From the sequence record PX880099.1: a DNA stretch of 64,000 nucleotides; one strand, given 5' to 3'. A model generated the notes under the pieces. The model worked only from the letters and a program-made list of their open reading frames with translations. It did not search any database and had not been told where the DNA came from. The stretch is from a phage. The first letter of the stretch is position 1. Each line of letters starts with the position of its first letter. The translations under genes were made by a program, and so were the position numbers. Below, piece by piece: positions 26,031-50,890 of the stretch.

Positions 26031-26031
26031 C

Positions 26032-27036: not shown

Positions 27037-27051
27037 TTGACAACAAAACAA

Positions 27052-27077
27052 GGGCGCACCAAGCGCCCTTTCTTTTT
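27052..27077 (+). terminator. rho-independent terminator
   Basis: GGGCGC-ACCAA-GCGCCC followed by TTTCTTTTT; closes the PeSL gene cluster. Confidence 0.65.
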
Positions 27078-27283: not shown

Positions 27284-27302
27284 AATGATAACCATTATCA
27301 TC
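27284..27302. promoter_or_regulatory. near-consensus Fur-box-like site
   Basis: AATGATAACCATTATCATC, 15 of 16 positions match the core of GATAATGATAATCATTATC. Confidence 0.4.
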
Positions 27303-28037: not shown

Positions 28038-28056
28038 AATAATAATCATTCTCATA
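28038..28056. promoter_or_regulatory. AATGAnAAT..ATTCTCAT motif copy
   Basis: AATAATAATCATTCTCATA. Confidence 0.35.
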
Positions 28057-28215
28057 TAAATAATAGTCTGCTTGTCATGAGCGGGATTAGTTGACAATGT
28101 TCCGTCATATGATGAGGTTGCCAAGCCATTGATAAATAAGTGTTTGTGTGATTTATAATCAGGTGGCCCACCTTGTCGCTATGTTGGCATGAGCCTTGCA
28201 TAAGTCATTGAATAC

Positions 28216-28236
28216 GAATGATAATTATTCTCATTC
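28216..28236. promoter_or_regulatory. palindromic AATGAnAAT..ATTCTCAT motif copy
   Basis: GAATGA-TAATTATTC-TCATTC. Confidence 0.4.
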
Positions 28237-28576
28237 GCATGATATTTGGGAATTGTCGCTGCGTGGACCTGACGGCCCGAAAATTCGCGTTAAGCACTTC
28301 TTACGTATGCACCATGATTTTTGCCATATCATATTGATTCTATTAGATATTCTTGCCATGATTGCCATGAAACAGGGTGTCCCGAAATAATCTCTCCCCG
28401 TAGATATTTTGGGTTACTTTTTATACAAGAGTGGGGTGTCAAAAATAATCGGTATATATGGGATAATTGATAGGAATCCCCTATGATAATTCGATTGTAA
28501 TTCCCTAAGATTGATCGTATGATGTTGGTGATTAATGATTGCCATGAAAGATGGCTAACGATGAGAGGAGATTATC

Positions 28577-28951
28577 ATGCAAGAGAGTAAAAATGTTCCG
28601 TTGAGCAGTGCAACATTGCTTCGCTTCTATAAAGCATGGATTGCCAACTATCCTGCAATGAATCGCACAACGAGTGGCTTATGTGGTTGTCTGGTAGATT
28701 ATGTAGATGATTTTGTTGGTGAGACAACTAGAGAAGAAGATAGAAGATGGCGTGATCATTTGTTGGACCGTTTGAAATATGAAATGAGGAAACAATTTAC
28801 ATGTGCAGGGTTGGACTACAATCTTCCGTTCAATGCAGATTGCATGGATTACCTTTCAGAGTGTATAAACTTGGCGTGTCATACCAACACGTTACGTCTT
28901 CAATGGGTGAAAGACAGAATTGAAGATGCAAATAATGCTTGCATTGAATAA
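28577..28951 (+). CDS. paralog family A member 1
   Basis: FYKAWI...GLCGCL...NLPF...RLQWVKDRI shared with four other genes. Confidence 0.6.
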   Translation: MQESKNVPLSSATLLRFYKAWIANYPAMNRTTSGLCGCLVDYVDDFVGETTREEDRRWRDHLLDRLKYEMRKQFTCAGLDYNLPFNADCMDYLSECINLACHTNTLRLQWVKDRIEDANNACIE

Positions 28952-29000
28952 AGATGTTTGTATAATGGATGACATAACAGATAGCCAATGAGGAGATGAA

Positions 29001-29210
29001 ATGAAGAATTTGAAAACTGTCACAATGTTCTTGACTAATCCTACACGTGTGCAAGCACTGGCTAAAGCCAGCCGTGTAGCTGTAGAATTCCAAAACTTTA
29101 AGCCGTCCGTTGTGACAGGCAGTGAAACGTGTGTTATCGATTTCATTAACGAATACTTCCGAGGGAATCCGGTTGGTCGTTACTTTATTAAGGGTCTGAA
29201 GGATGCATAG
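29001..29210 (+). CDS. hypothetical protein
   Basis: 69 aa ORF, SD GAGGAG. Confidence 0.5.
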   Translation: MKNLKTVTMFLTNPTRVQALAKASRVAVEFQNFKPSVVTGSETCVIDFINEYFRGNPVGRYFIKGLKDA

Positions 29211-29211
29211 C

Positions 29212-29433
29212 ATGAAACGCATGAAAATTCGTATTGAGAATGATGGTGGTTATAAAGGACTTACCCGTGCAAAATTCCCACTTGTGTTGGAAGCTACGGT
29301 GGAATACAGTGGGCTTGCTCATGTGCGATTCTCGAAGATGATGGAAGTGCAGGAATGGTTTTGGGACGAGATAGATGCACGAGAAGGGGAAGATTATGTT
29401 TTCTTTCCTCACGAATATGAAATTGTTTATTAA
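29212..29433 (+). CDS. hypothetical protein
   Basis: ATG (MKRMKIR) after AAGGA. Confidence 0.45.
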   Translation: MKRMKIRIENDGGYKGLTRAKFPLVLEATVEYSGLAHVRFSKMMEVQEWFWDEIDAREGEDYVFFPHEYEIVY

Positions 29434-29445
29434 AGGTTGTATGCA

Positions 29446-29685
29446 ATGATCACACCACAACAAAATGAAGCAGCAATGGATCTTCTTGATAGTTTGTATT
29501 TCGATAATTGGTACTCTGAATGTGAATGGATGAATATGCAAACTCTGAAAGAGAAGACAAAAGCGTTGATTACAGTAGATCAATTTCTTGCAGAGACGGA
29601 AAGAATGAATTATGATATGGCATCTCGCGCACGACGCGTTTCCATTTTCAATAAAATGTTAGCATTATGGGGAGGTAGAAAATGA
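29446..29685 (+). CDS. hypothetical protein
   Basis: ATG (MITPQQN); track start is TTG. Confidence 0.45.
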   Translation: MITPQQNEAAMDLLDSLYFDNWYSECEWMNMQTLKEKTKALITVDQFLAETERMNYDMASRARRVSIFNKMLALWGGRK

Positions 29686-30143
29686 GACAATTCACTATAC
29701 TGGCAGCTTATGTGCAATGTGTTCACGATTATGTTAGTGCTCATACAGGTTTGCTGGAAGTTACCAGTAAAATTGAAGGTAATATGGGTACTGTCTGTGT
29801 GCAACATACTTTATCCAATGTGCCGTTTAAAGTGTTCACTGTTGTAGCTGCCGATTACAATCGTGTAGATGTGCGTTTCTTGGATCATAATTTTCGTAAC
29901 GCACTAGATAATATCGAAGATTATCTTCCCGTGAAACCTTTGTCATTTCCACCAAGTCGTGCAAATAATGTAGTGACAAATCTTAATGAAAGAAATGTGG
30001 CTATGCACAAAAAAGTCCGTCAACTGAAAATGCTGATGGAAATGCAAGAAGAGATTGAAAAAGAACTGAAAGAAGATTTTGGTATGCTTCCAAAAGACGC
30101 TTTGAAATGGTATGATGAACTAGGAGGAGAAAGTTATGAATAA
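29682..30143 (+). CDS. hypothetical protein
   Basis: 153 aa ORF, SD GGGGAGG. Confidence 0.55.
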   Translation: MRQFTILAAYVQCVHDYVSAHTGLLEVTSKIEGNMGTVCVQHTLSNVPFKVFTVVAADYNRVDVRFLDHNFRNALDNIEDYLPVKPLSFPPSRANNVVTNLNERNVAMHKKVRQLKMLMEMQEEIEKELKEDFGMLPKDALKWYDELGGESYE

Positions 30144-30330
30144 AGGAACTACTGTATATTTAGTGACTAAGAACACCCCAGGTTGGAATCAGTGCACAAC
30201 GACTCCATATAAGATTTGTGCAACACTGGAACTAGCACAACGTGCAGAAGCGGAAGTTGATGCTATGCGATACAGCTACGGGGAGATCATTCCTTTCACT
30301 CTGGAACAAGAAGGAGCACATAGTGTTTAA
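30136..30330 (+). CDS. stand-alone copy of the family-B C-terminal module
   Basis: VYLVTK...LELAQRAEAE...YGEIIPF resembles C-termini of the four family-B genes. Confidence 0.5.
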   Translation: MNKGTTVYLVTKNTPGWNQCTTTPYKICATLELAQRAEAEVDAMRYSYGEIIPFTLEQEGAHSV

Positions 30331-30778
30331 GGTAGGGTTTACTTATAAATTCAAAAGCGTTGCTGACCAAGGAGATATGGCAACACATGACAAAGCAAAT
30401 ATTGCTGTTTGCCAAGCGATTGGAAACGAAGTTTTCAAAGTTATGAATACAGATGATAAGTATGGTCATGTTCTTGAGTTTTATATCAATGGTACCCTCT
30501 ATACAGCAGGTGTTACCCCAGGGTTTAATTCGTATACTTATTTGATTGATAACGAAGAATTTAAATATTTTGAAGAAGTAAAGGAGGAAACAATGGGTAA
30601 AGCAGAACCACAATGGCATGTTGTGATCGTAGGATCAGAGTGTGTAGATGTTTGTTCTAGTTTTGAAAAAGCTTCTGAAGTCGCTACAAAAGCTAAGAAG
30701 GACTATCCGTCGAAGACGGTTGAGATTTACGCTCGTGTTGCAGTAGCAAACGCCACAATCACTATTGATAAGGAGTAA
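30323..30778 (+). CDS. paralog family B member 1 (GTG start)
   Basis: N-terminus (M)FKVGFTYKFKS after AAGGAG; conserved C-terminal VEIYARV. Confidence 0.55.
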   Translation: MFKVGFTYKFKSVADQGDMATHDKANIAVCQAIGNEVFKVMNTDDKYGHVLEFYINGTLYTAGVTPGFNSYTYLIDNEEFKYFEEVKEETMGKAEPQWHVVIVGSECVDVCSSFEKASEVATKAKKDYPSKTVEIYARVAVANATITIDKE

Positions 30779-30783
30779 AGCCA

Positions 30784-31242
30784 ATGTTCAAAGAAGGTCA
30801 TGTCTACCGTTTCCAGGATGAGGATTATATGCGACTATATTCTACCTTTGATAACAGTATTGCGGCTATCATTGGAGAGAATTTTTTCGAGGTGTTGAGC
30901 ACTGATGCAAATGGTAATATCTTGTCAATGGTTGTAATAGGTATGAGAGATGGTATTATCACTGCTGGTGATGGGGATCGTTACATAATCAATTCTGCTC
31001 ATATAGATTATTTTGTTGACGGTGGTGTTCGTGGTGGTCGTGGAAAACCCCAAGAAGAACCTGTTGATACGACAAAAGAAGAGTGGTATGTTGTAATGAC
31101 TGATGACACCTGTATTTCTGGATTTGAAAGTTATGAAGAAGCTTTGAAAGAAGCAGCAGAGCATAAAATGGCTAATCCTACAGAAGAGGTTGAAGTTTAT
31201 AAACGTCTGGTTGTTGCTACCATCGGCGTATCTTTTGTTTAA
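30784..31242 (+). CDS. paralog family B member 2
   Basis: MFKEGHVYRFQ...VEVYKRL. Confidence 0.55.
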   Translation: MFKEGHVYRFQDEDYMRLYSTFDNSIAAIIGENFFEVLSTDANGNILSMVVIGMRDGIITAGDGDRYIINSAHIDYFVDGGVRGGRGKPQEEPVDTTKEEWYVVMTDDTCISGFESYEEALKEAAEHKMANPTEEVEVYKRLVVATIGVSFV

Positions 31243-31254
31243 AAGGGGAATGTT

Positions 31255-32040
31255 ATGTTTAAAGTAGGTTTTGTTTATAATTTCAAATCGGAAGATACCA
31301 AAAAGAATTTTGGTAAAGCTAGTATTCGTAACGCTTTCTTTGTAGGTTGCATTCAAGATAGCAAGTTTAAAGTTTTAGATGTTGATTTTCTAGGTTCTGT
31401 GTCAAAGGTGAAGGTATTAGACACAAATAAGATCATCGAAGGTAGTTCTGGGCTTTTTCCTGAAGGCTATAAGCTTGTAAGTTGTATAGATTATAGTCGT
31501 TTTGAAGAACATCCTCCTGAAGATTATGAGGATTCTCCTACAGGAGGTTGTGTCTTTGTAGAAGGTGGTGTCTATAAGTTTGCAAGTGAACAAGATCGTA
31601 AGCTTTTCGCCAATTATATTGACGGCGGACAAACGACAAACAATGTAAACCGAAAAATTTCCGATCTTATTGGAGATGATCCTTTCGTGATCACAAAGAT
31701 GGTTGGACAAGATGTAACAGCAATCCGTAGGCTTGTATGTAATACAAATCATGTAGCAGGTGAAGGTTGGTTCAAAGAAGCTTGTGCACTGCTAATCAAA
31801 AGCGATAACCCTTACTTTAAAAATATTAAAAATGCTGTTGAGCCTAAACAAGAGGAACCCGCAGCGAATTTTAAACACTATGCTATTGTTAAAGGTATGA
31901 ATGTCCAACTGGTGTCACATTCTTACGAAGAGATCGCCACAGAAGCAAAAAAGATGAAGGAAGAATACCCAATTTCTACTGTTGAGATCTATGAGCGTAT
32001 TGGTGTTGTTAGTATTGAGCCTACTGCGGTAATAAAATAA
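31255..32040 (+). CDS. paralog family B member 3 (internally duplicated)
   Basis: MFKVGFVYNFKS...GGVYKFAS...VEIYERI. Confidence 0.55.
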   Translation: MFKVGFVYNFKSEDTKKNFGKASIRNAFFVGCIQDSKFKVLDVDFLGSVSKVKVLDTNKIIEGSSGLFPEGYKLVSCIDYSRFEEHPPEDYEDSPTGGCVFVEGGVYKFASEQDRKLFANYIDGGQTTNNVNRKISDLIGDDPFVITKMVGQDVTAIRRLVCNTNHVAGEGWFKEACALLIKSDNPYFKNIKNAVEPKQEEPAANFKHYAIVKGMNVQLVSHSYEEIATEAKKMKEEYPISTVEIYERIGVVSIEPTAVIK

Positions 32041-32049
32041 GGAGCTATT

Positions 32050-32487
32050 ATGTTCAAAGCTAATGCTGTTTACTGTTTCAAAAGTAAAGCTGCCTGTGAA
32101 GCTTTCTCTGTGATCTCGGATGAAAATTTCAAAATGGCAGCTTTGATTGAAGGGTCTTGTTTCCGCGTCGAAGATGTTAGTGAATCAGGGTCTGTTTGCT
32201 CATTGACTTTATTGGACAGCGGGGATATTATTGAAGCTGGACAGTATCCGTTCAGAAGTTGGGAGATATTGTTAGCTCGCGGAGAGCGTAACTTTTTTAT
32301 GTGTGTGTCTGCGGGGGAAGTTGTGAAAGAAACTAATGATGTTTCTGTTTACAATTCTGAATTTATAAGTTATAGTGAGTATCAACATCTGGAAGGCATT
32401 GTTGGTCACTTGTTATCTCTGATTGACGTTGAATGTGACCTGCCTGAATCATTGAAAGAAGAATTGAAAGCATTAGATCTGTTATAA
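32050..32487 (+). CDS. paralog family B member 4
   Basis: MFKANAVYCFKS... Confidence 0.55.
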   Translation: MFKANAVYCFKSKAACEAFSVISDENFKMAALIEGSCFRVEDVSESGSVCSLTLLDSGDIIEAGQYPFRSWEILLARGERNFFMCVSAGEVVKETNDVSVYNSEFISYSEYQHLEGIVGHLLSLIDVECDLPESLKEELKALDLL

Positions 32488-32514
32488 TGTTTCGCACAAC
32501 GAAAGGAGAATAAG

Positions 32515-32814
32515 ATGAATCTGACCGAACAGTTACGCCGTATTGCAAAAGAAACTTCCTTCAACTTCCCTGTTGAAGAAGTGATCGAGACATGTTTTGC
32601 TGAAGCACGAGCGGGAAACTTTTCAAGGAATTTCACGCCCTCTGATTTTGGTCTGGATAATTCCCCTACCCACCCAGGGGAGATCTACAATCAGGTGAAG
32701 TGGATGGATGAAGCAGTAGCAATTCTTCGTGAGCGTGGGCTTATTGTTTATAAAGAAATGGATCTGAATGGGGCATACGAGTGGATCACTATTGACTGGT
32801 CGGAGGTGAAATAA
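32515..32814 (+). CDS. hypothetical protein
   Basis: 99 aa ORF, SD AAAGGAGAA. Confidence 0.55.
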   Translation: MNLTEQLRRIAKETSFNFPVEEVIETCFAEARAGNFSRNFTPSDFGLDNSPTHPGEIYNQVKWMDEAVAILRERGLIVYKEMDLNGAYEWITIDWSEVK

Positions 32815-33023
32815 TGGTTACTATCACATTGACAGTTACACAAGAGCAAGCAGAAGAATTACGTGATGCAGTAGCATATATGGGGCGCTCTTATTATATG
32901 CCTCATAAATCACAAGATGTTTTTGCTACAGCCGTTGAGAAAGCTTTAAACAAATACCGAGAAACTCATGCCGTTCCTAAAGTATCAGTAGAAGAGTTTG
33001 GCACTTGGCACGAAGTTCACTAA
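32814..33023 (+). CDS. hypothetical protein
   Basis: 69 aa ORF, SD GGAGGTG. Confidence 0.5.
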   Translation: MVTITLTVTQEQAEELRDAVAYMGRSYYMPHKSQDVFATAVEKALNKYRETHAVPKVSVEEFGTWHEVH

Positions 33024-33033
33024 GGAGGTTTCG

Positions 33034-33267
33034 ATGAAAGGTAACAAGATGAAAGTTAATCAGGTACCGAGCGCATACACTCTGTGGCTTGCGCGAGCGT
33101 TAAACCAGACGATCAAAAATCCTAAGAAGCCAATGAAGAGTGGGAAGAAGTTTATGTCTAAGGGCAAAACAACCTTTGGCTTCACTCGTATGTCTGTTAA
33201 GATGAAAAGACTGGGGTATAAGCCAAACTACGCTCGTTACCCTTCCGAATACAACTGGTTTGATTAA
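33034..33267 (+). CDS. small basic protein
   Basis: ATG (MKGNKMKV) after AAGGAGG. Confidence 0.5.
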   Translation: MKGNKMKVNQVPSAYTLWLARALNQTIKNPKKPMKSGKKFMSKGKTTFGFTRMSVKMKRLGYKPNYARYPSEYNWFD

Positions 33268-33282
33268 AGAGGAGAACAAAAC

Positions 33283-33567
33283 ATGAAAACATCTATTCGC
33301 GTGAAACATGATCCAAACAGCAGTTACCCATACGCGTATGTTGAACGTCATGAAGGAGACTATTACACCATAAAACGTAAAGTCCCAACTGATACAGGGT
33401 TTAACTTCGATGTTATCGCACTGGATGATCAAGGTGTTGATAATCTGGTGAACGCATTACTCGCATTGAAGGAAGTACGACATGAAAATCAGACTAAAGG
33501 TAAAGTGGCTTTCGATTCTTGTGATCGTTTAGCCGAAGAGATTGCCGAATGGCGTGACACTAACTAA
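33283..33567 (+). CDS. hypothetical protein
   Basis: 94 aa ORF, SD AAGAGGAGAA. Confidence 0.55.
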   Translation: MKTSIRVKHDPNSSYPYAYVERHEGDYYTIKRKVPTDTGFNFDVIALDDQGVDNLVNALLALKEVRHENQTKGKVAFDSCDRLAEEIAEWRDTN

Positions 33568-33582
33568 AACAGGAGAAAGATT

Positions 33583-33759
33583 ATGGCTACTTTTCAACAA
33601 CTGAAAGATGTTTCACGTTTAGTAAGAAAAATCCGAGAAGCAGACGCTGCTGTGCGAAATGCACTAACGCCAGCAGAGCGTGAAGATCTTGAAGAGGAGG
33701 TGAAAACAGCCGAGAATGCTTTTGCTGCGTATCTTTCAACACTGTATACAGGAGGTTAA
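33583..33759 (+). CDS. small protein (58 aa)
   Basis: Hand-translated MATFQQLKDVSRLVRKIREAD..., SD CAGGAGAAAG. Confidence 0.45.
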   Translation: MATFQQLKDVSRLVRKIREADAAVRNALTPAEREDLEEEVKTAENAFAAYLSTLYTGG

Positions 33760-34074
33760 ATGTCAGAAGAACTTAAAGAATTTTATCAGGCATATCATAA
33801 CTGGCTATTAGCTGGTGCTCCAGATAATAATCCTTTCTGGCATGATAAAGGGTTATGTAGCTGCCTATATCTTTGGTCTGGTGGTTATGATGACCTAAAT
33901 TATGAAATGCAAATGCAATTCCGCGAAGCAGGTTTGTCTGAAGAATACCCGTTTGATGATGGGGATTGGTTTAAATATGATTTTGCACAAAGAAACGGGC
34001 TGCTACATTTGAATGCTGCTCGTATAAAATGGGTAAAAGATCATGTCACACAGGAGGATGTGCAATGCCTATAG
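33760..34074 (+). CDS. paralog family A member 2
   Basis: FYQAYHNWL...GLCSCL...EYPF...RIKWVKDHV. Confidence 0.6.
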   Translation: MSEELKEFYQAYHNWLLAGAPDNNPFWHDKGLCSCLYLWSGGYDDLNYEMQMQFREAGLSEEYPFDDGDWFKYDFAQRNGLLHLNAARIKWVKDHVTQEDVQCL

Positions 34075-34265
34075 TGTTTGTTTTCTTGGCAATTGTTATG
34101 GTGGTTCTTTTCGCTGTATGGCTTTGGGATTTTGACCCAGGAGCCGCGCAGCAAAGAGCTACAGACTTGAAAGAACAATGTATTGTGCTCAAACATGAAC
34201 GAAATGCGGAGAAATTTCTTGACCTGGAGTGTGATCGCCTTGTAAGATACAAGCAAGATAAATAA
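34065..34265 (+). CDS. small membrane protein
   Basis: MPIVFVFLAIVMVVLFAVWLW after CAGGAGG. Confidence 0.45.
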   Translation: MPIVFVFLAIVMVVLFAVWLWDFDPGAAQQRATDLKEQCIVLKHERNAEKFLDLECDRLVRYKQDK

Positions 34266-34279
34266 CCTTGAGGTGCAAA

Positions 34280-34468
34280 ATGGTAATTGAGATTAAACTT
34301 GAATATGCTGGGGCTGTTGCCTTGATCGCACAAATGCTTGGAGCAAAGATTGAAGAAGTGTATATCAACGCCTGGAGCGTAGAGATTGATGTTCCTATGG
34401 ACAACATTGCTAATCGCTTGCTGGTGGCAGAGTGTGAACGCACCAACATAATCTACAAAGGAACATAA
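34280..34468 (+). CDS. small hypothetical protein
   Basis: ATG (MVIEIKL) after GAGGTG. Confidence 0.45.
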   Translation: MVIEIKLEYAGAVALIAQMLGAKIEEVYINAWSVEIDVPMDNIANRLLVAECERTNIIYKGT

Positions 34469-34469
34469 T

Positions 34470-34691
34470 ATGAAAATTAGAGTTTGTGATGTATTGGGTT
34501 ATGTTGGTTTTGAGAATGTTCAGATTCCTTTTGTTGTTGAAGCACATCTTGTTAGTGAGGATATGACAACATTCTTTGTTACGATAGAAGAAATGTCCAA
34601 AGTTGAGGGATGGGAGTGGTTTGAAGAAGATGTTTGGGAAGGTTGTGATTACGTATTTTTCTCTGACGAAGTGAATGTTCTTGCGGAGTAG
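34470..34691 (+). CDS. hypothetical protein
   Basis: 73 aa ORF. Confidence 0.5.
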   Translation: MKIRVCDVLGYVGFENVQIPFVVEAHLVSEDMTTFFVTIEEMSKVEGWEWFEEDVWEGCDYVFFSDEVNVLAE

Positions 34692-34693
34692 GT

Positions 34694-34900
34694 ATGTCTT
34701 GTTTTACAAAAGCAGTCTCCATATGTAAGAAACAGTATGAAAGTGATTACGGAATATTTAATATTCCAGTAGATCATACAGTGTATTGTTCATGTGGTGG
34801 CAGAATGAAGAAAACAGTGATTTATGCGGATAATGGAGATGAACTTGTTCCAGTTATGGTTTGCAAAGCTTGTCATTCTGTTAAAACATTAAAAGCGTAA
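34694..34900 (+). CDS. small zinc-ribbon-like protein
   Basis: CSCGG...CKACH cysteine pairs. Confidence 0.5.
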   Translation: MSCFTKAVSICKKQYESDYGIFNIPVDHTVYCSCGGRMKKTVIYADNGDELVPVMVCKACHSVKTLKA

Positions 34901-34996
34901 GGAGTCGGGACACCCGACGATTGGAGCTAAAAATTTTGCGTACAACCCTTTCCGCCCAACAGGGGGCGCATCGGGTAAACAAAGAGGAGAGTTTAT

Positions 34997-35395
34997 ATGA
35001 AAAAGATTATCGTAGGTTTATTGTTACTCATTGCATCTCTTGGAACAGCGAATGCATCTCAAGTTTATGAGTGTGTATCAGACGTAGTTGTTAAAAATCT
35101 GAAAGGTGAAGTGATTTCTGGTCCTAAGAAAATGGCTTCTGTTGTCATTAATAAAGACAACTCCTTTATCCTTAAAAATTCGGGTGGTGCTTTGATGAGC
35201 GGTATTCTTCAAAACACAGGAGGAAAGAGTAAAGATGGAAGTTCTATGTACGGTTCACAGCAGTTTATTGGCACTACCGAAGTTGTGATGATGCGCACAG
35301 AGTATCGAGATACTTTAGCTTGGTTTGCATTTCTAAAAAATGATAAAACAATAACGAATGTTCTTACTCTAGAAGCTGATTGTACGCAACGATAA
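34997..35395 (+). CDS. secreted protein (signal peptide)
   Basis: MKKIIVGLLLLIASLGTANA. Confidence 0.55.
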   Translation: MKKIIVGLLLLIASLGTANASQVYECVSDVVVKNLKGEVISGPKKMASVVINKDNSFILKNSGGALMSGILQNTGGKSKDGSSMYGSQQFIGTTEVVMMRTEYRDTLAWFAFLKNDKTITNVLTLEADCTQR

Positions 35396-35403
35396 GGGGA
35401 TTT

Positions 35404-35850
35404 ATGACTAAAGTGAGGCATTACGCTGTAAACTGCAACGATGCTTGGCGTTTGTGTCCTGATGATCCGACAGAAGGCACATTTGTAAGATATGAGGATT
35501 ATAAAGAGTTATCGGATGCTGTGATCGCATTGTTAACTGATATCCGTTCACGTTATCCAGGACAAGATTTCACTTGCCCTCACATCAAACTTCTTGCTTG
35601 TCTGGTAGAAGGTGAGAAAGAAGTGGAAGATGGCTTCAAGCGTGTAGAGTATCAAGGTGAAACTTTAGAGGTTCCTGAATTTGTTAATTATATTGCAACA
35701 GATTCGAGTGGCGAGCGTTATGGCTACAGCCATAAGCCAGAGATTCCTGATTGGATTCCCGCTTGGAGATATTCCGTTAGGACCGGAGACTATATCTTCC
35801 TTGGTGTAGGTAGTAGTAAGGATTGGCGTTTCTCTTTGACAGAGGTTTAA
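35404..35850 (+). CDS. hypothetical protein
   Basis: ATG (MTKVRHY) after AAGGGGA. Confidence 0.5.
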   Translation: MTKVRHYAVNCNDAWRLCPDDPTEGTFVRYEDYKELSDAVIALLTDIRSRYPGQDFTCPHIKLLACLVEGEKEVEDGFKRVEYQGETLEVPEFVNYIATDSSGERYGYSHKPEIPDWIPAWRYSVRTGDYIFLGVGSSKDWRFSLTEV

Positions 35851-35854
35851 TAAT

Positions 35855-36118
35855 ATGGAAGAAACATTACCAGCAGCATATCGTTTGAATGATGAGCGTA
35901 TTTGGGAGTGGACCGACGTTTCTTGTTTTTACCCTGAAATAGTTCAGTATTGGCGAGCGAAAGGGTGTGTTGTAGTTATCAACCCTTGTGGACCAGTGGA
36001 TGAAGATTGCTTGTATCTCGATGGAAAGTGGCACAGTTATTGTCGCTGGCCTTTTGAGTGGATGTGTAAAGAAGATCTCCCAGAGGGTTGGGAGTATCCA
36101 AAAGCAAATAGGAGATAA
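35855..36118 (+). CDS. hypothetical Cys/Trp-rich protein
   Basis: 87 aa ORF. Confidence 0.5.
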   Translation: MEETLPAAYRLNDERIWEWTDVSCFYPEIVQYWRAKGCVVVINPCGPVDEDCLYLDGKWHSYCRWPFEWMCKEDLPEGWEYPKANRR

Positions 36119-36119
36119 T

Positions 36120-36482
36120 ATGTCTAAAGATTTTGTTGAAGTGTTTGTCAAAGATGAAGAAACTGGTTTAGGCACGGGTTTCATTTGTGAAGAAACTTTT
36201 AAACGTGAACAAGAAAAAGCTATCCTTATGCGAAACTATGATCATGCACTAGAACAATGGAAAAATGCAGAACAAAAATGCAAAAACCTTTATGCAGAAA
36301 ATAGAAAACTACAAGATCAAATGGAGTTGTTAGCTATCAGTTTACGATCTCTCATTTTGGCTGTAGAAGATGGTTTTAAAAATCCAGATGGTTTTCCTGT
36401 GAGCGATATTGAACATGATTTGTATCTTGCTCGTGGTGCTTACTTTTATGTTAAACAGAAGTCTGTAGAAGGAGAGAAGTGA
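36120..36482 (+). CDS. hypothetical protein, coiled-coil-like
   Basis: ATG (MSKDFVEV) after AGGAGA. Confidence 0.5.
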   Translation: MSKDFVEVFVKDEETGLGTGFICEETFKREQEKAILMRNYDHALEQWKNAEQKCKNLYAENRKLQDQMELLAISLRSLILAVEDGFKNPDGFPVSDIEHDLYLARGAYFYVKQKSVEGEK

Positions 36483-36679
36483 TGGAAGAAAAACTGGAAC
36501 GTATTATCGAGTTAGCCATGTCTATTGGCTACGACGATTGTTTTCTCCAAACTATTGGAGAAACACAGAACGATTACGACTCTTGGGTGAAAGAGTTGGA
36601 AGAACTCAAAACTTCCTTGATTGCTGACTTTGCTGAAGCAGAGGATAAAGCGGATCGTTACAACTATCTGTGTCGATAA
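36479..36679 (+). CDS. hypothetical protein
   Basis: 66 aa ORF, SD GGAGAG. Confidence 0.5.
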   Translation: MMEEKLERIIELAMSIGYDDCFLQTIGETQNDYDSWVKELEELKTSLIADFAEAEDKADRYNYLCR

Positions 36680-36683
36680 ACCT

Positions 36684-36712
36684 TGACATTTCTTTTATGT
36701 ATGGTATACATA
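36684..36712 (+). promoter_or_regulatory. sigma70-type promoter
   Basis: TTGACA with A/T-rich -10 region (TATACA/TACATA) 15-17 bp downstream. Confidence 0.4.
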
Positions 36713-36740
36713 CATTATCAACACAGATAAGGAGAGAAAA

Positions 36741-37085
36741 ATGATTAAACTCTTATGTGCAGAGTCTTCTGTCGAGTTCCTTAAAGAGGGTAAGCAGTAT
36801 CTAGCTTCCCAAGTTATAGATAATCCAGGTTTGTTTTATATTACAGACGAAGAAGGGGATACCCTGTGTATCTCTTTGATTATGGATTGTGGTCGGTTTC
36901 ATGTAATTGAGGATGACACTATTCGTCTCTTTGAGGTTTCCTACACAAAAGACAATGGTCCTGTCCGTAAATATCAAATTCCAGCAAAATCCGCCTTTAA
37001 CGCATGTGTACGATTAGGTCAAATCTACGGGGACGATAAAGATTGTCGTGAAGATGTATTTATCAACGTGATCGAGGTAAAATAA
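36741..37085 (+). CDS. hypothetical protein
   Basis: 114 aa ORF, SD AAGGAGAG. Confidence 0.55.
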   Translation: MIKLLCAESSVEFLKEGKQYLASQVIDNPGLFYITDEEGDTLCISLIMDCGRFHVIEDDTIRLFEVSYTKDNGPVRKYQIPAKSAFNACVRLGQIYGDDKDCREDVFINVIEVK

Positions 37086-37411
37086 TGAAAACAAGTAAAG
37101 ATTTGATGGAGTTTTATAAAATTTATCTAGCATGGATTGATGTTGGTGCTCCTGATGGTAAACCTTTTCGGCGGGATTGTGGTTTGTGTGCCAACTTGTT
37201 CGATTATGTGCACAGAGGTAATTACAACCCCATTATAACAACCTTGTCAGATGAAATGCACGCACAGTTTTACCATAAAGGGTTGAATCAAGGACTCCCT
37301 TTCAATGAGAACTACGATGCATATGTCTTAGAGTCAGATGCAGATGCCTGTCACCTGAACGTGGACAGAATTAATTGGGTAAGAGATCGTATTGCAGAGG
37401 AGGATGAATAA
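37085..37411 (+). CDS. paralog family A member 3
   Basis: FYKIYLAWI...GLCANL...GLPF...RINWVRDRI. Confidence 0.6.
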   Translation: MKTSKDLMEFYKIYLAWIDVGAPDGKPFRRDCGLCANLFDYVHRGNYNPIITTLSDEMHAQFYHKGLNQGLPFNENYDAYVLESDADACHLNVDRINWVRDRIAEEDE

Positions 37412-37638
37412 TGTCGGATTATAACTGGTATGAACTTGAAGCTGTTTGTCAGTTTTATGATTCAATAGTTCTACGTGATCCAATCTGTCAAGAATTGAGT
37501 CGCCGTGCAAGTGCATTGGCAATCCGTGTTAAAATAAATGGTTGGAACCCAGACTTGGAAAAAGAGTTGGAATTTCTCTTAGAAACAACACGTGTCTTCC
37601 ACAAAGTGTTCCCTGAATGGTTTGAGATGGAAGAATGA
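37411..37638 (+). CDS. hypothetical protein
   Basis: 75 aa ORF, SD GAGGAGGA. Confidence 0.5.
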   Translation: MSDYNWYELEAVCQFYDSIVLRDPICQELSRRASALAIRVKINGWNPDLEKELEFLLETTRVFHKVFPEWFEMEE

Positions 37639-37856
37639 TCATGTGGATTGTGCGTCTTAAGTATGATGGCCCTAATCCTTGGGTGAGAACAGTTTGCGGA
37701 TGTGATACTAAAGAGTCAGCAGATAAAGCTGGAAGAATGATAAGTGCCTTTTATAATAGTAAACCTCTTTGTTTAGAAATGTCTGGTGTGGTTTGTATGA
37801 GCATGTTCGAATACTACTCTTATGAGATCAAAGAACACCAAGGAGAATGGAAATAA
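37635..37856 (+). CDS. hypothetical protein
   Basis: 73 aa ORF, ATGA-coupled. Confidence 0.5.
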   Translation: MIMWIVRLKYDGPNPWVRTVCGCDTKESADKAGRMISAFYNSKPLCLEMSGVVCMSMFEYYSYEIKEHQGEWK

Positions 37857-37860
37857 ATCG

Positions 37861-37889
37861 TTGACAGAAGGATCTGTCTTTGTCATAAT
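37861..37889 (+). promoter_or_regulatory. sigma70-type promoter with GACAGA..TCTGTC palindrome
   Basis: TTGACA-17-CATAAT. Confidence 0.45.
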
Positions 37890-37918
37890 CATCTCATCGA
37901 AACAAAGAGGAGAAAATC

Positions 37919-38332
37919 ATGAAAAAGTTTATTTGCACCCGTTCCACTAACAGTGATATCCTTGTAGGTAAGGTTATCAAAGGAGAACTCTTCCATGCAA
38001 ACGGTAAGAAATATATTCTGCTGAAAGATTCTTTCAACGGGGAATATCCGCGCTGCACTTTCTTCAATTACAACACTCCGTTTGCTTTAGAAGGAGATGC
38101 TTGGGAATGGGCTGAACTCAATCCTTGTTGTGAGGAAGAAGAATCTATGTTCTTAGGTTTAAACGTTTACCGTGTAGATTACACCATGTGCGGAGCGGAA
38201 CATTCTGTTCGCGTAGAAGCCGAATCCAAACTACAAGCACCTTTCAAGGCAGGATTGACTTTGGGTCATTGTTTGGCAAACATTGAAGATGTTGTGATCC
38301 AAAGAGTTGTTTTAGAGAAAGAGGCTATTTGA
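37919..38332 (+). CDS. hypothetical protein
   Basis: 137 aa ORF, SD AGAGGAGAAAA. Confidence 0.55.
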   Translation: MKKFICTRSTNSDILVGKVIKGELFHANGKKYILLKDSFNGEYPRCTFFNYNTPFALEGDAWEWAELNPCCEEEESMFLGLNVYRVDYTMCGAEHSVRVEAESKLQAPFKAGLTLGHCLANIEDVVIQRVVLEKEAI

Positions 38333-38384
38333 GAGAAGACGGCACAATATTTAAATATAAAGATTAACCACAAAGGAGATAGAT

Positions 38385-38684
38385 ATGCAAGTTGAAGACC
38401 TGATCAAAATTTTGAATGAAGCCAAAGAGAAAGGTGCTATCAAGGACTGGAAACGTGAAACAAGTGAAGACCTATCTCACTGTTGCCGAGAATTTTACAT
38501 CGAAGGTATTGCTAACGATCATTATACTATTGAATGGTATATTAACTTAATGACTCTTAAACACGGTTCATTTGAGGTTTGGTTTGATGACATTGATGTA
38601 AATGGTTTTCATCCTGGCTATAAAATCGCTATGCAGTTATCTTATCGTAGAGAAGTTGTAGCACATTTGGGTTTACATAACTAA
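38385..38684 (+). CDS. hypothetical protein
   Basis: 99 aa ORF, SD AAAGGAGA. Confidence 0.55.
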   Translation: MQVEDLIKILNEAKEKGAIKDWKRETSEDLSHCCREFYIEGIANDHYTIEWYINLMTLKHGSFEVWFDDIDVNGFHPGYKIAMQLSYRREVVAHLGLHN

Positions 38685-39018: not shown

Positions 39019-39231
39019 ATGAAGGCACATTACCCTCATCCCTTTGATCCTAAAAACAAAGCCGTAATTCTTCGTCAGTGGCAACGGGTTTGTCGTACTA
39101 AATGTCCAATTAATAGCCAACACAATGTGGACAAGGACTATCTTGGGACATTTGTTGAATACACTTACATAGACAAAAACAAGCGTAAACAACATGTCGA
39201 GGAATACTGTTTAAGAGTAGAATGGCTGTAA
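39019..39231 (+). CDS. hypothetical protein
   Basis: 70 aa ORF, SD CAGGAGG. Confidence 0.5.
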   Translation: MKAHYPHPFDPKNKAVILRQWQRVCRTKCPINSQHNVDKDYLGTFVEYTYIDKNKRKQHVEEYCLRVEWL

Positions 39232-39243
39232 ATAATAAATACC

Positions 39244-39272
39244 TTGACAAGTGTTTATTCGTTTTGTAAAGT
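39244..39272 (+). promoter_or_regulatory. sigma70-type promoter upstream of the recombinase gene
   Basis: TTGACA-17-TAAAGT. Confidence 0.45.
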
Positions 39273-39301
39273 GAGAATACAGCAATGGTTTAGGAGTGGT
39301 T

Positions 39302-39973
39302 ATGAAAAAGTTTGTTGTTTACAGTCGTCTTTCTAAACAGAAAAAAGGTGAGGCACAATATGGTATGGAGAGCCAAGAGAATGATATCCGTTACTTCTTA
39401 GACTCTGTGCCTGATGCGGAAGTTATTGGTCAATTTTCTGAATACTATTCTGGTAAGGGCGATTGGAAGCAACGTAAGGAACTGGTTAAAGCGGTTGAAA
39501 TGTGTAAAGCTACCGGAGCAACTTTATTGGTAGCTAAAGTTGACCGCTTGGGTCGTAACAACGCCTCCGTAGCAACTCTTCTGGAGATGATCGATGTTAA
39601 GATAGCCATCATGCCAGACGCAGATAAAATGGTTATACAGCTTCTATCTGTTCTGGCTGAACAAGAAGTTAGAGGTATTGCTGATCGTATTAAAAAGGGT
39701 CTTGCTGTAGCAAAAAGTAAAGGTGTTTTATTAGGTAGTGCTAATCCTAAAACTGCCGCTGCACGTAGAAAAGGAAAAATGGAATACAACTCTGTTAAAG
39801 CAGACGCTTTTGCAGAGACATTCCGTGAACGCTTGGAGATCCTTAGAGATTTAAATACACCTTACAAAACTATTGCTGAAAAATTCAATAGTAAGAAAAT
39901 AGCAACAGCACGTGGTGGTAAATGGGATGCTAAAACTGTTTCTCGTTTGTGTGCCAGACTTAACATTAAATAG
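39302..39973 (+). CDS. serine recombinase (resolvase/invertase family)
   Basis: 223 aa; VVYSRLSKQ catalytic-serine region, LLVAKVDRLGRN, C-terminal HTH-like segment; ATG after AGGAG. Confidence 0.6.
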   Translation: MKKFVVYSRLSKQKKGEAQYGMESQENDIRYFLDSVPDAEVIGQFSEYYSGKGDWKQRKELVKAVEMCKATGATLLVAKVDRLGRNNASVATLLEMIDVKIAIMPDADKMVIQLLSVLAEQEVRGIADRIKKGLAVAKSKGVLLGSANPKTAAARRKGKMEYNSVKADAFAETFRERLEILRDLNTPYKTIAEKFNSKKIATARGGKWDAKTVSRLCARLNIK

Positions 39974-39981: not shown

Positions 39982-40392
39982 ATGAAACAAGAAAATGAAT
40001 CTGTAGATCACTTAATCATGCTGTCAACCCTTTTTGCCGGATGGGACGTATTTTTTGAAAATTTGTTCAATTCTGCTACAGATGGTTCCGATTTTATGCG
40101 GCAGTTTAAACGACGAACTGTTGAGGACTATGCTTTCTATTCAGGTCGGATTGAAAAAGGTTACGAAGATACAAATACAACACTCACCATTAAAGTTTTA
40201 GATGTGATGTTTAGTGTTATAGATGCTATCGACGAAAGTCTTCCGATCCTGGACAATTGTAATACGAAAGCCTATGTTTACAAAATAGCCCGTGCTTATG
40301 TGTCTGCAAACAGTTGTCTTCTTTCCACGCAGATTGCCGTGAACAATCTTGCCAACTTGTTCGACGAAGGAGAAACTTTTTATGACAATTGA
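39982..40392 (+). CDS. hypothetical protein
   Basis: 136 aa ORF, SD AGGAGAGGA. Confidence 0.55.
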   Translation: MKQENESVDHLIMLSTLFAGWDVFFENLFNSATDGSDFMRQFKRRTVEDYAFYSGRIEKGYEDTNTTLTIKVLDVMFSVIDAIDESLPILDNCNTKAYVYKIARAYVSANSCLLSTQIAVNNLANLFDEGETFYDN

Positions 40393-40747
40393 TTTGAAGT
40401 GTAAAAGGATTCTTTTAGATTTCTATAATAATTGGTTAGAACACCTCCGTCTCTTTCCAAGAGAAAGTGGTTACGCTGATGTTGGCTTATGCCGAGGTCT
40501 ACGTATGTATATAAGTGATGAATTTCGGGCCGAGCATTCTTTAGCATATTCTGTTTATGGTATGCAATTAGCCAGTTTTGAAAACGCTGGCTTAGATACA
40601 ACTTTCCCATTTAACACAGCAAAATCTTTTGAGCAAGAGTGTAAGGAAAAACGTTGCATGTTTAATGAAAAACGTGTACAGTGGGTTAAGGATCGAGTTA
40701 AACAACTGGAACAAGAGTTGGATTTCTTCTATGATGAGGCAGAATAA
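40382..40747 (+). CDS. paralog family A member 4
   Basis: ATG (MTIDLKC) after GAAGGAGAA; FYNNWL...GLCRGL...TFPF...RVQWVKDRV. Confidence 0.55.
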   Translation: MTIDLKCKRILLDFYNNWLEHLRLFPRESGYADVGLCRGLRMYISDEFRAEHSLAYSVYGMQLASFENAGLDTTFPFNTAKSFEQECKEKRCMFNEKRVQWVKDRVKQLEQELDFFYDEAE

Positions 40748-41635: not shown

Positions 41636-41640
41636 CAGTT

Positions 41641-41668
41641 GCACCCCGTTCTTCGGGGTGTTATTGTA
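41641..41668 (+). terminator. terminator-like hairpin
   Basis: GCACCCCG-TTCTT-CGGGGTG followed by TTATTGTAT. Confidence 0.5.
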
Positions 41669-41686
41669 TACGTAAAGGAGGAGATA

Positions 41687-42025
41687 ATGTATTACACTGA
41701 AGACTACATACTGTATAACTTTTTTAAAGGCTGGTTGAAATGGGCTGAACAAGCTCCTGTCGGAGATTGTGTTTTTCCTTGGGATTCTCGTCAAGGTTTG
41801 TGTCGTTGTTTGGAAGATTGGCTTATAACCACAAACTACAACTCAGAAACTAAGAAATCTACATCACAGAGACTAAAAATGTTATTTGAAGAAGATGGTT
41901 TAGATCCGATTTATCCTTTCGGTGAGGAAAGTTTCCACAATGGTCTTTTCCTTGGCACTCAACATTATGATAAAGATCGTGTAGATTGGGTAAAAGAAAA
42001 GGTAGCACAGTATGAATGGGGTTAA
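41687..42025 (+). CDS. paralog family A member 5
   Basis: ATG (MYYTEDY) after AAGGAGGAG; FFKGWL...GLCRCL...IYPF...RVDWVKEKV. Confidence 0.55.
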   Translation: MYYTEDYILYNFFKGWLKWAEQAPVGDCVFPWDSRQGLCRCLEDWLITTNYNSETKKSTSQRLKMLFEEDGLDPIYPFGEESFHNGLFLGTQHYDKDRVDWVKEKVAQYEWG

Positions 42026-46127: not shown

Positions 46128-46150
46128 AACCCGCTTCGGCGGGTTTTTTC
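46128..46150 (+). terminator. strong rho-independent terminator
   Basis: AACCCGC-TTCG-GCGGGTT followed by TTTTT; same hairpin recurs at 50869-50890 on the other strand. Confidence 0.7.
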
Positions 46151-50868: not shown

Positions 50869-50890
50869 AAAAAACCCGCCGAAGCGGGTT
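50869..50890 (-). terminator. rho-independent terminator (ACCCGC-TTCG-GCGGGT plus T-run)
   Basis: Same sequence as the plus-strand terminator at 46128-46150. Confidence 0.65.

Follow-up and report, generated by a model that had tools for sequence, protein, structure and literature searches.

The gene at 39302–39973 of the stretch of phage DNA analysed here (record PX880099.1; 64,000 nt, hereafter the window) is predicted to encode a free-standing serine site-specific recombinase of 223 aa that appears catalytically intact. The source phage is a Phapecoctavirus (phAPEC8-like), a strictly virulent myovirus of E. coli, and sequence comparison within the genus shows a core gene under very strong purifying selection. 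The gene has a putative host-type promoter of its own and lies in the early gene block. The recombinase does not appear to be an invertase of the Hin/Gin type that flips a host-range switch. Our best guess, made by analogy and with low confidence, is that it may act in a resolvase-like manner at a one-per-genome site on replicating phage DNA. The annotation as a recombinase is already public and the enzyme is of an ordinary kind; no functional study of the gene or of its short subfamily was found in the literature searched.

The features recognized at the locus are the following:

39244–39272, plus strand: predicted sigma-70-type promoter (TTGACA 39244–39249, 17-nt spacer, TAAAGT 39267–39272; 10/12 matches)
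39292–39296, plus strand: ribosome-binding site AGGAG, read from the sequence, 5 nt before the ATG
39302–39973, plus strand: open reading frame of the short serine recombinase (223 aa), ending in TAG 39971–39973
39302–39727, plus strand: catalytic (Resolvase) domain, residues 1–142, from the Pfam match, invariant residues and model superposition
39626–39718, plus strand: long helix E, residues 109–139 (helix H109-139 of the AlphaFold2 model)
39746–39958, plus strand: predicted C-terminal helical DNA-binding domain, residues 149–219, a truncated 'Recombinase'/HTH_62-like helix-turn-helix

The open reading frame on the plus strand may begin at GTG 39296 or at ATG 39302. The latter is the likely start, because the AGGAG lies 5 nt upstream of it and the orthologous proteins begin with MKKF or MKF. 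The promoter is the second-best sigma-70-like site in 6 kb and falls within a 70-bp gap (39232–39301), the only sizeable intergenic gap in those 6 kb. Promoter-like matches in the same 6 kb were in no excess (15 found vs 16.5 expected from shuffles), so the promoter is supported by its position in the gap and by its equivalents, with TTGACA and a spacer of 16 or 17 nt, which precede the orthologous gene in eight further lineages of phages (L002-L005, L007, L009, L012, L028). The sequence-only reading had described a recombinase with its own promoter among small hypothetical genes of a lytic-looking block, and this description held: all of the neighbouring ORFs (10/10) belong to PHROGs of unknown function, and the phage is virulent. 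The GC content and GC3 of the recombinase gene match those of the neighbouring genes.

The protein is a member of the serine recombinase superfamily by its profile match, its catalytic residues and its fold, including helix E, in agreement with the earlier naming of a resolvase- or invertase-type enzyme. Residues 5–142 match the Resolvase profile PF00239 (E 5.2e-18, 66 bits vs a cut-off of 23.3). The best PHROG match was PHROG 125, 'DNA invertase' (2.6e-32), with PHROG 95, 'integrase', at 7.6e-22, and the best sequence matches among solved structures were chains of the Tn3/gamma-delta resolvases (E about 1e-6). The motif Y7-x-R9-x-S11 is present, with the Ser11 codon at 39332–39334, as are D81-R82 and R85; the DRLGR block aligns to the DRLGR of Tn3/gamma-delta, and the corresponding gamma-delta residues are R8, S10, D67, R68 and R71, those of the N-terminal motif being taken from established numbering. 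The AlphaFold2 model has a mean pLDDT of 88.8. It can be superposed on the catalytic domains of Sin, gamma-delta and TP901-1, with a TM of up to 0.73 when the target is used for normalisation, and the best full-length structural match was the large serine recombinase Bxb1. In the gamma-delta resolvase and Sin structures, helix E runs across the minor groove of the DNA and makes up the interface for synapsis.

The C-terminal region is modelled as four helices (H149-172, H175-183, H188-197 and H210-219). The only C-terminal profile match was to PF07508 (Recombinase), a weak and partial one (residues 187–216, profile positions 19–48 of 102, 18.2 bits, below the 21.1 cut-off); no match to HTH_7 (PF02796) was obtained at E <= 1, and none to a zinc-ribbon domain in the profile search. 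Among 27 family members, PF07508 was matched by 15 and HTH_62 by two. Of the 'Recombinase' domain found in the large serine recombinases, only the first helices have a counterpart in this helix-turn-helix. Scores against the NCBIfam models XisF and Ccr were far under their cut-offs, and similarity to the Bacteroides invertase Mpi, which is trans-acting, was weak (22.6 bits vs a cut-off of 272). The protein fits a short 'recombinase family protein' group of about 215–240 aa with a catalytic domain and an RD-like helix-turn-helix, which is an operational grouping, the recombinase being claimed by no curated family. Ninety-three relatives of 213–258 aa have this short architecture (coverage 92–100%), and the family comprises about 3,900 clusters at E <= 1e-30, mostly of 215–240 aa and matching profile positions 1–223.

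The recombinase shares with the large serine recombinases (Bxb1, phiC31, TP901-1, A118) the Y-x-R-x-S motif with a spaced S..Q after it, the catalytic fold, helix E and the first helix-turn-helix of the recombinase domain. Those proteins, however, are 450–600 aa long. What follows in their recombinase domain is missing here, as are the zinc ribbon and coiled coil that set the attP/attB choice and the directionality of the large enzymes. With Tn3/gamma-delta resolvase and Sin it has in common the size class, the catalytic domain and the proposed reaction (resolution between directly repeated sites), whereas their HTH_7-type C-terminus and a neighbouring transposase are missing; moreover, a Tn3-type res region of about 120 bp with three sub-sites would not fit into the 70 bp available upstream. 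The IS607-type transposases carry a MerR-like helix-turn-helix at the N-terminus and the catalytic domain at the C-terminus, in contrast to the N-terminal catalytic domain here, and often have a TnpB partner, whereas no TnpB-like neighbour is found at this locus. Two relatives score only 26.5–30.1 bits against NF033518 (cut-off 110), to which the window protein has no match.

The serine and arginines of the active site, whose loss would have told against the sequence-only reading, are conserved throughout: Y7, R9, S11, Q25, R58, D81, R82 and R85 are invariant in alignment A1 (27 sequences), down to about 30% identity. The gene was present in all 65 Phapecoctavirus records (65/65); in about 60 of them it is single-copy and fixed in position and its protein is 100% identical. 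Codon differences from six sister phapecoctaviruses were 54 synonymous and 0 non-synonymous, vs 93 synonymous to 33 non-synonymous for six neighbouring genes. Isolates differ by numerous gene-sized indels in the block around it, and the recombinase is the most constrained gene of this fast-changing early block.

Orthologues are found in the phAPEC8-like phages and in phi92 (gp053; also Paula_0014), with the same length, domains and own promoter and no difference in kind; the Justusliebigvirus orthologue is 57% identical. They are annotated in public records as 'serine recombinase', 'resolvase' or 'DNA invertase', with some mislabelled as an ABC-transporter protein. More distant relatives occur in varied settings. 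In one prophage, a relative of 43% identity lies 1 kb from a large serine recombinase of 448 aa encoded separately, and in satellite-like elements the relative adjoins a primase and a tyrosine integrase is also carried; because separate integrases co-occur with them, these relatives are not integrases. On viral contigs the relatives are grouped with ERF, Dcm, a DnaA_C helix-turn-helix and DUF1376. Full-length relatives of 33–40% identity were also found on 109 plasmids, 92 of them non-mobilizable; some of these plasmids are only 5.8–10 kb in size with Rep and ParA-like genes as the only other recognisable genes, the 5.8-kb examples including pMaD11 and a Klebsiella plasmid, and two have dyad motifs just upstream of the recombinase relative.

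The tentative proposal of a resolvase-type reaction comes from these distant relatives, namely those on 6-kb Rep/ParA plasmids and those in early modules of phages and satellites that have a separate integrase. The other option named by the sequence-only reading, the resolution of replication intermediates, is the one favoured here, on indirect evidence. If the enzyme behaves like all serine recombinases studied so far, two of its dimers would bind a short dyad-symmetric site and synapse into a tetramer, Ser11 would cut all four strands with formation of 5'-phosphoserine links, and one half of the tetramer would rotate by 180 degrees before religation of the ends. The target site would occur once per genome copy and so would be invisible as a repeat in the window. 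During replication of the phage DNA, recombination of one copy of the site with another would separate or circularise genome units, and the full-length plasmid relatives presumably carry out the same type of reaction, a suggestion drawn from gene content and from proteins sharing 33–40% identity. Linear genomes with direct terminal repeats are normally packaged from concatemers; there is therefore no obvious need for a resolvase, which counts against the proposed role. The genome of this phage is linear with 329-bp direct terminal repeats (PMC12695924).

The phage DNA that was examined yielded no cognate recombinase site, and several candidates were rejected. The sequence-only reading had pointed to a 57-bp element pair as the only repeated candidate site, an assignment that did not survive. 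The best-matching pairs (16468–16530 with 23188–23250, and 17715–17768 with 24425–24478) belong to a family of at least 15 promoter-plus-hairpin cassettes, each with a sigma-70 promoter and a 5' GC hairpin, all on the plus strand 13–23 kb upstream of the recombinase and with stems that vary by compensatory changes. These repeats are accordingly read as putative early promoters and not as recombinase sites. A dyad over the recombinase promoter (39234–39259) is weak (9/11 per arm), AT-rich and overlaps the -35 box; it matches the general early-promoter consensus of the phage, ATAAAyCTTGACA, and lacks conservation in L004, a relative of 75% identity. The orthologue of Shewanella phage 1/40 is preceded by a 32-bp dyad, of which each locus has only one copy. 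Putative candidate regions for binding are 27600–27760, 28212–28240 and 39234–39259. Dyads were 1.4-fold denser upstream of recombinase genes than locus-wide, a difference that is uninformative, and a 'repeat_region' 1.9 kb downstream in phage nieznany proved to be a trivial internal 22-nt imperfect tandem. An integron-like cassette system was also discarded: the indel junctions lie at ribosome-binding sites and first codons of paralogous genes, with overlaps of 4–14 nt, and have no common dyad core. The gene-sized indels fit homology-driven shuffling.

It is also conceivable, at a clearly lower level of confidence than the resolvase-type guess, that a core, early and minimal recombinase of strictly virulent myoviruses may carry out a programmed reaction undescribed for lytic phages, which could take two alternative forms. 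The first would be a Cre-like circularisation or unit-length resolution at or near the 329-bp terminal repeat and the non-coding region at 27.0–28.6 kb. Cre-loxP of phage P1 is a functional analogy only, Cre being a tyrosine recombinase of an unrelated family. With one site per genome, Cre resolves dimers and is able to circularise incoming DNA that is terminally redundant. P1, for its part, is a temperate phage maintained as a plasmid, and any such site inside the 329-bp terminal repeat here would be hypothetical.

In the second form the enzyme would target DNA of the host, a prophage or a satellite for rearrangement or breakage, serving as a weapon of takeover or counter-defence. More broadly, a recombinase that rearranges, excises or breaks chromosomal, prophage, satellite or plasmid DNA of the host or of a competitor is an unlikely alternative that nonetheless has several points in its favour. 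The gene lies in the early block, the usual home of takeover and anti-defence genes, and the cognate site did not emerge from the phage DNA. Its homologue in ICP1 has an accessory distribution, being absent from about 74 of about 82 records and confined to the 2017 DRC lineage. Host invertible DNA can be relevant to phages, since Pin-family inversions in E. coli are reported to affect phage adsorption (PMC12529663). However, anti-defence genes are usually patchy, whereas the recombinase is universal in its genus and the most constrained of its block, and the C-terminal domain is unlike that of Pin, Hin and Gin, which makes shared sites unlikely. A PADLOC search of the recombinase also gave no match.

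A selfish single-gene cassette, that is, a mobile or moron-like recombinase with its promoter that moves between phages with little benefit to them, is rather improbable. The recombinase is the only gene that the window has in common, within about 6 kb, with the loci of phi92-like, Klebsiella, Vibrio, Shewanella and ICP1 phages, and where it lies and which way it points with respect to the phosphatase/methylase cluster vary between genera, with Phapecoctavirus differing from its phi92-like and Klebsiella relatives. Such variation is as compatible with an accessory, self-contained cassette as with a housekeeping gene. The very large size of the family and the clean one-gene presence/absence in ICP1, between the promoter/RBS and ORF39, would also suit a cassette. 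Against this, the gene is single-copy, fixed in position and invariant in protein sequence across the phapecoctaviruses, with the codon changes and the neighbour-like GC and GC3 given above, and no terminal repeats or target duplications were found flanking it. The ICP1 isolates without the gene retain the last ~20 nt of the ORF, which looks like loss and not insertion. These isolates are viable and lytic, and the function is therefore dispensable at least in the ICP1 lineage.

A catalytically silent DNA-binding regulator derived from a recombinase would account for the failure of the scans to find target repeats and would suit an early gene, as these are often regulators, but all of the catalytic residues, including the nucleophile Ser11, are invariant, which is unexpected of a protein that only binds DNA and renders this reading very improbable.

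A DNA invertase behind a programmed switch, whether of host range, the leading idea of the sequence-only reading, or of gene expression, now appears less credible still. The PHROG 125 label, the use of the same name in several GenBank records and the weak similarity to Mpi, which shows that invertases can act at distant sites, are in its favour. Hin, Gin, Cin and Pin are likewise small phage-borne serine recombinases and bear the same PHROG label. Unlike them, the recombinase here has no HTH_7 domain, no flanking inverted sites, which in such systems are a pair of 26–34 bp each, and no invertible tail-fibre segment. Exact inverted repeats longer than 16 nt (hairpins excluded) were absent within 5 kb on either side of the gene in the window and 84 related loci, with the exception of L047, in which a 21-nt inverted pair with arms 143 nt apart lies about 2.5 kb upstream of the gene; the remainder of this 85-locus scan gave chance-level 13–16-mers. 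The check put forward earlier, a search for inverted repeats flanking segments elsewhere, gave no support within the window either: the best inverted pairs across it were 71–88% matches or terminator hairpins. The tail-fibre genes are all on one strand. A 24-kb tail-fibre block and a 25-kb block around the recombinase were each collinear in the 60 genomes listed from phage records, and likewise in six genomes compared locally, and both orientations of a segment were not seen among isolates in either block; the comparison covers these two blocks of the 150-kb genome. The WPEC1, WPEC2, WPEC4 and WPEC6 records, in which the sequence matched at 10–12 'places', were considered as rearrangements and rejected, since they consist of strings of ~152-nt pieces from unrelated positions, in both orientations and joined head to tail, which are almost certainly read-length assembly artefacts and not recombination products.

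Least credible of all is an integrase for rare or cryptic lysogeny, for which the N-terminal two thirds related to the large serine integrases and the PHROG 95 match might be cited, but which is opposed by the 223-aa length with no full recombinase domain, zinc ribbon or coiled coil, by the separate integrases that accompany the relatives, by the description of the phage subfamily as virulent, and by the absence of any blastn match to the gene, and hence of an integrated prophage copy, in 5,426 complete genomes of E. coli.

The gene is carried by all of the phAPEC8-like and phi92-like phages, which have been widely proposed for therapy, and therapeutic-phage screens flag recombinase genes as markers of a temperate lifestyle. 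It therefore matters for such use that this recombinase looks unlike an integrase and unlike an invertase. Its family, made up of short serine recombinases, is very large and uncharacterised; identifying the target site would explain what a lytic phage gains from site-specific recombination, and genome engineering could acquire a compact enzyme of about 220 aa.

Some minor observations concern the genome termini and the non-coding DNA. The REC record has no terminal repeats and is cut in the non-coding region. No Fur box was matched within 3 mismatches in the terminal repeat, and an Rfam search of the non-coding terminus region returned nothing above threshold. The non-coding region at 27.0–28.6 kb is structured and conserved.

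The window comes from the genome of a phAPEC8-like phage (Phapecoctavirus, Stephanstirmvirinae). Its segment 38000-41500 has 99.3% identity with Shigella phage SF1-1 and 99.1% with Escherichia phage DE16, and 63 records cover at least 80% of that segment at identities of 95-99% or better. A serine recombinase with its own promoter, lying among small hypothetical genes, had been proposed at 39244-39973 by a sequence-only reading. This was confirmed by a Resolvase match, a promoter-like site and the surroundings of the gene, where each of the ten neighbouring ORFs falls in a PHROG without known function. The interval begins at the promoter-like site and ends at the recombinase stop codon:

39244-39272, + strand, promoter-like site TTGACA-17-TAAAGT
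39292-39296, + strand, AGGAG
39302-39973, + strand, 223-aa recombinase (ATG start at 39302, stop codon at 39971-39973)

The GC content and GC3 of the gene match those of its neighbours. A 70-aa ORF upstream (39019-39231) is named 'ABC transporter ATP-binding protein' in several records, and in LR597654 and OR062526 this name has been placed on the recombinase itself. Because near-identical genomes also carry the names Campylobacter phage B15, Acinetobacter phage ABPW7 and Klebsiella phage ZCKP1 in public records, these host labels are doubtful.

The Pfam Resolvase catalytic domain matches residues 5-142 of the protein (E 5e-18), while residues 187-216 weakly match the 'Recombinase' domain found in large serine recombinases, over its first third. 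Matches were also found to PHROG 125 'DNA invertase' and to the solved structures of Tn3/gamma-delta resolvase and Sin. Ninety-three full-length relatives (213-258 aa) were gathered, and 27 of these, from 81% down to ~30% identity, were aligned. Y7, R9, S11, G21, Q25, R58, D81, R82 and R85 are invariant in this alignment, and on the basis of the motif and the DRLGR alignment they are assigned to the nucleophile motif (Tyr-x-Arg-x-Ser) and the Asp-Arg..Arg cluster of gamma-delta resolvase. The doubt raised beforehand, that the catalytic serine and arginines might not be conserved, therefore falls away. In the AlphaFold2 model (mean pLDDT 88.8) the catalytic fold is followed by a long helix E (109-139) and by a C-terminal domain of four helices; its best structural matches are the large serine recombinase Bxb1, over the whole length, and the catalytic domains of Sin, gamma-delta and TP901-1.

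Against six sister phages, in comparisons that share ancestry, the recombinase showed 54 synonymous and 0 non-synonymous codon differences, and six neighbouring genes together gave 93 : 33. The gene was present in 65 of 65 Phapecoctavirus records, and the block surrounding it is full of gene-sized insertions and deletions. As judged from sequence, this is an intact serine recombinase in the early block with a predicted host-type promoter, strongly constrained and without flanking repeats, and a functional core gene of Phapecoctavirus.

The enzyme class is ordinary, and the names serine recombinase, resolvase and DNA invertase are already in public records. No NCBIfam equivalog came near its cut-off (YneB, 32.5 bits vs 175; XisF, 27 vs 375; Mpi, 23 vs 272). 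HTH_7 was not found in the protein, which is therefore not of the Hin/Gin/Cin/Pin or Tn3 type by architecture. Its length of 223 aa and the missing zinc ribbon, coiled coil and remainder of the recombinase domain exclude it from the large serine integrases, and since its catalytic domain is N-terminal it is not IS607-like. It falls in a very large uncharacterised 'recombinase family protein' group of ~215-240 aa, comprising ~3,900 clusters (50% identity, E <= 1e-30), most of which match the profile end to end. P0094-P0101 and other database proteins of 400-900 aa match this profile in 2-7 separate stretches, and may be either tandem fusions or artefacts of gene calling or assembly. Closest among known proteins are phi92 gp053 and its other orthologues, themselves uncharacterised, followed by the large serine recombinases, with which the N-terminal two thirds are in common; Tn3/gamma-delta/Sin resolvases are alike in size and proposed reaction, whereas Hin/Gin invertases are alike in name only. 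The points of interest are why a strictly virulent phage family retains a recombinase that is more tightly constrained than any other gene of its early region, and how large the family of uncharacterised short recombinases is.

Following the chemistry common to studied serine recombinases, dimers would bind a short dyad site, two site-bound dimers would synapse, Ser11 would cut all four strands to give 5'-phosphoserine links, and one half would rotate 180 degrees before the ends were rejoined. From its context, we tentatively suggest that the substrate is the phage's own replicating DNA, with a site once per genome copy, leading to resolution or circularisation of genome units. Full-length relatives were found on 109 plasmids (92 non-mobilizable), several of which, at 5.8-10 kb, carry only Rep and ParA-like genes as other recognisable genes. 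On such small replicons a serine recombinase would most simply be a multimer-resolution enzyme; two small plasmids have dyad motifs up to 70 bp upstream of the recombinase gene. Against such a reaction in the phage, its linear genome ends in direct terminal repeats of 329 bp, phages with direct terminal repeats normally package from concatemers, most ICP1 (Vibrio phage) records are without the gene, and sequence scans of the window found no recombinase target site.

A dyad scan of the 64 kb (14-nt arms, up to 2 mismatches, spacer 0-6) gave six distinct sites, no more than in Markov controls, three of which lie around the genome terminus:

27040-28575, 1.5-kb non-coding AT-rich region with the physical genome ends
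27590-27775, multi-stem element ~200 nt left of the terminal repeat, outer stem 27628-27642 / 27741-27755
27600-27632, candidate dyad
27703-27736, candidate dyad
27964-28292, 329-bp terminal repeat, mapped from the Schickermooser record, whose two 329-bp ends are identical
28212-28240, candidate dyad

Terminal repeats have been reported for the subfamily (PMC12695924), and many GenBank records begin within 27750-28220. The 1.5-kb region is conserved in blocks among Phapecoctavirus, Justusliebigvirus and a Klebsiella phage; those at both repeat boundaries are kept in three lineages (..ATGTTGAGC / AAGTTCTC.. and ..AAAATCGCGTT / AAGCAC.., the stroke marking the boundary). The multi-stem element has a 15-bp outer stem around three hairpins; comparison of Phapecoctavirus, Justusliebigvirus and Klebsiella phage FKP3 shows compensatory double changes at six pairs. 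An Rfam search of it gave no family match; it may act as an origin or a packaging signal, or may be an RNA. The terminus region is not tied specifically to the recombinase, and a packaging or replication role could equally apply.

An action on host or competitor DNA is doubtful, and that the gene is a selfish cassette is somewhat more so. A TTGACA-N16/17 promoter of its own precedes every orthologue examined (phi92-like Justusliebigvirus, Klebsiella phages, a Vibrio phage, Shewanella phage 1/40 and ICP1), and within ~6 kb the recombinase is the only gene common to the window and those loci. It lies in a same-strand lysozyme-PhoH-methylase-...-phosphatase series in phi92-like and Klebsiella phages, whereas the phosphatase homologue of the window is 14 kb away on the opposite strand; the recombinase has therefore moved as a self-contained unit at least once. 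Only 8 of ~82 ICP1 records, all of the DRC 2017 lineage, carry it. In the other isolates, exactly this position holds the same promoter, followed by an orphan ribosome-binding site (GAGGA) that runs into the final ~20 nt of the ORF (ICP1 loci L003, 4996-5738, vs L094, 4905-4915). The recombinase is dispensable in ICP1, and its absence from most isolates probably reflects loss. A second small ORF beside it (L003, 5768-5938) is lineage-specific and reuses the ORF39 ribosome-binding site. A non-catalytic regulator is improbable for a protein with an invariant nucleophile motif.

Slightly less credible still is an invertase, although an invertible host-range switch had been suggested. The inverted-repeat search proposed with it found no convincing inverted pair window-wide, the longest being 71-88% matches tens of kilobases apart, and within 5 kb of the gene, in the window and 84 related loci, exact inverted repeats were at the chance level of 13-16 nt, except in one relative (L047) with a 21-nt pair ~2.5 kb upstream of its recombinase gene. 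The sole perfect 22-nt inverted pair (46128-46149 / 50869-50890) is a self-complementary terminator hairpin ending two convergent gene blocks; it flanks a 4.7-kb block of minus-strand genes that is inverted in no isolate compared. Identical intrinsic-terminator hairpins are reused also at 21405/26478/27042 and 46766/58871. Tail, tail-fibre and baseplate genes of near-identical SF1-1 are all on one strand, and its tail region has no opposed alternative fibre ends. The orientation survey across isolates covered a 24-kb tail block, which has a single one-strand match in each of the other 59 records listed, and a 25-kb block around the recombinase, which likewise has a single one-strand place except in records starting inside it. 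Local alignments to six genomes were fully collinear.

The WPEC1, WPEC2, WPEC4 and WPEC6 records appear rearranged, with strings of ~152-nt pieces from unrelated positions in both orientations (window 7223-7375, 21775-21923, 24515-24667, 54526-54679 and 63250-63403). The pieces, joined head to tail (WPEC2 PV691511.1, 133300-144800 and 3108-3260; likewise in the other three), increase the genome sizes to 155-161 kb. We take them for read-length assembly artefacts and not for recombination products.

An integrase is the least likely alternative: a blastn search of 5,426 complete E. coli genomes gave no match to the gene, hence no evidence of integration. Its more distant relatives, at 33-45% identity, are not integrases. 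In one prophage, a large serine recombinase of 448 aa is encoded separately, 1 kb from the relative; in satellite-like elements the relative adjoins a primase and a tyrosine integrase is also carried, and in viral contigs it is accompanied by ERF, C5 methylase, a DnaA-C HTH protein, DUF1376 and a tyrosine recombinase.

A 57-bp element pair had also been offered as the candidate site, and was taken here as the best repeated pairs of about that size in the window:

16468-16530 / 23188-23250, + strand, repeat pair, 63 nt, 87%, 35-nt exact core
17715-17768 / 24425-24478, + strand, repeat pair, 54 nt, 87%
16210, 16491, 17739, 17928, 18379, 19437, 19756, 20786, + strand, examples of cassette copies
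21689, 21976, 22847, 23211, 23650, 24449, 25756, + strand, further cassette copies

Both pairs belong to a family of at least 15 elements at 16.2-26.1 kb (16186-26100), all direct copies on the + strand. Every copy begins with an A-rich tract, followed by TTGACA, a 17-nt spacer and a -10 hexamer; a GC hairpin starts ~7 nt further on, and its stem varies between copies by compensatory changes (GGCGGCA/TGCCGCC, GGCGGGAA/TTCCCGCC, GCGGCGGA/TCCACCGC). These cassettes are predicted to be early promoters with a 5' transcript hairpin. They lie 13-23 kb from the recombinase, and were rejected as its target since 15 direct copies acting as sites would delete the early region. Promoter-stem-loop cassettes, which those of the window appear to resemble, have been proposed as drivers of gene shuffling in T4-type phages.

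Variation in the early block was also surveyed:

28577-28951, 33760-34074, 37085-37411, 40349-40747, 41639-42025, five phrog_2510 paralogues (function unknown)
30131-30781, 31266-32047, 32817-33032, 33277-33562, 36102-38546, examples of gene-sized indels

The paralogues, with the C-terminal motif ..FPF..RVxWVKDR.. in common, are spread on both sides of the recombinase, and the same family adjoins the recombinase of a 75%-identical relative (L004). Close relatives differ by clean gene-sized insertions or deletions in 28596-38546, with junctions at ribosome-binding sites or first codons of adjacent paralogous genes (4-14-nt overlaps), which suggests cassette shuffling driven by short homology. 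Elsewhere, the ORF at 12439-13899 (486 aa) contains three diverged ~225-nt direct repeats (WEQYK.. modules) at 12457-12989, and an apparently non-coding stretch at 15209-15418 holds a pair of 72-nt direct repeats, 82% identical and 138 nt apart.
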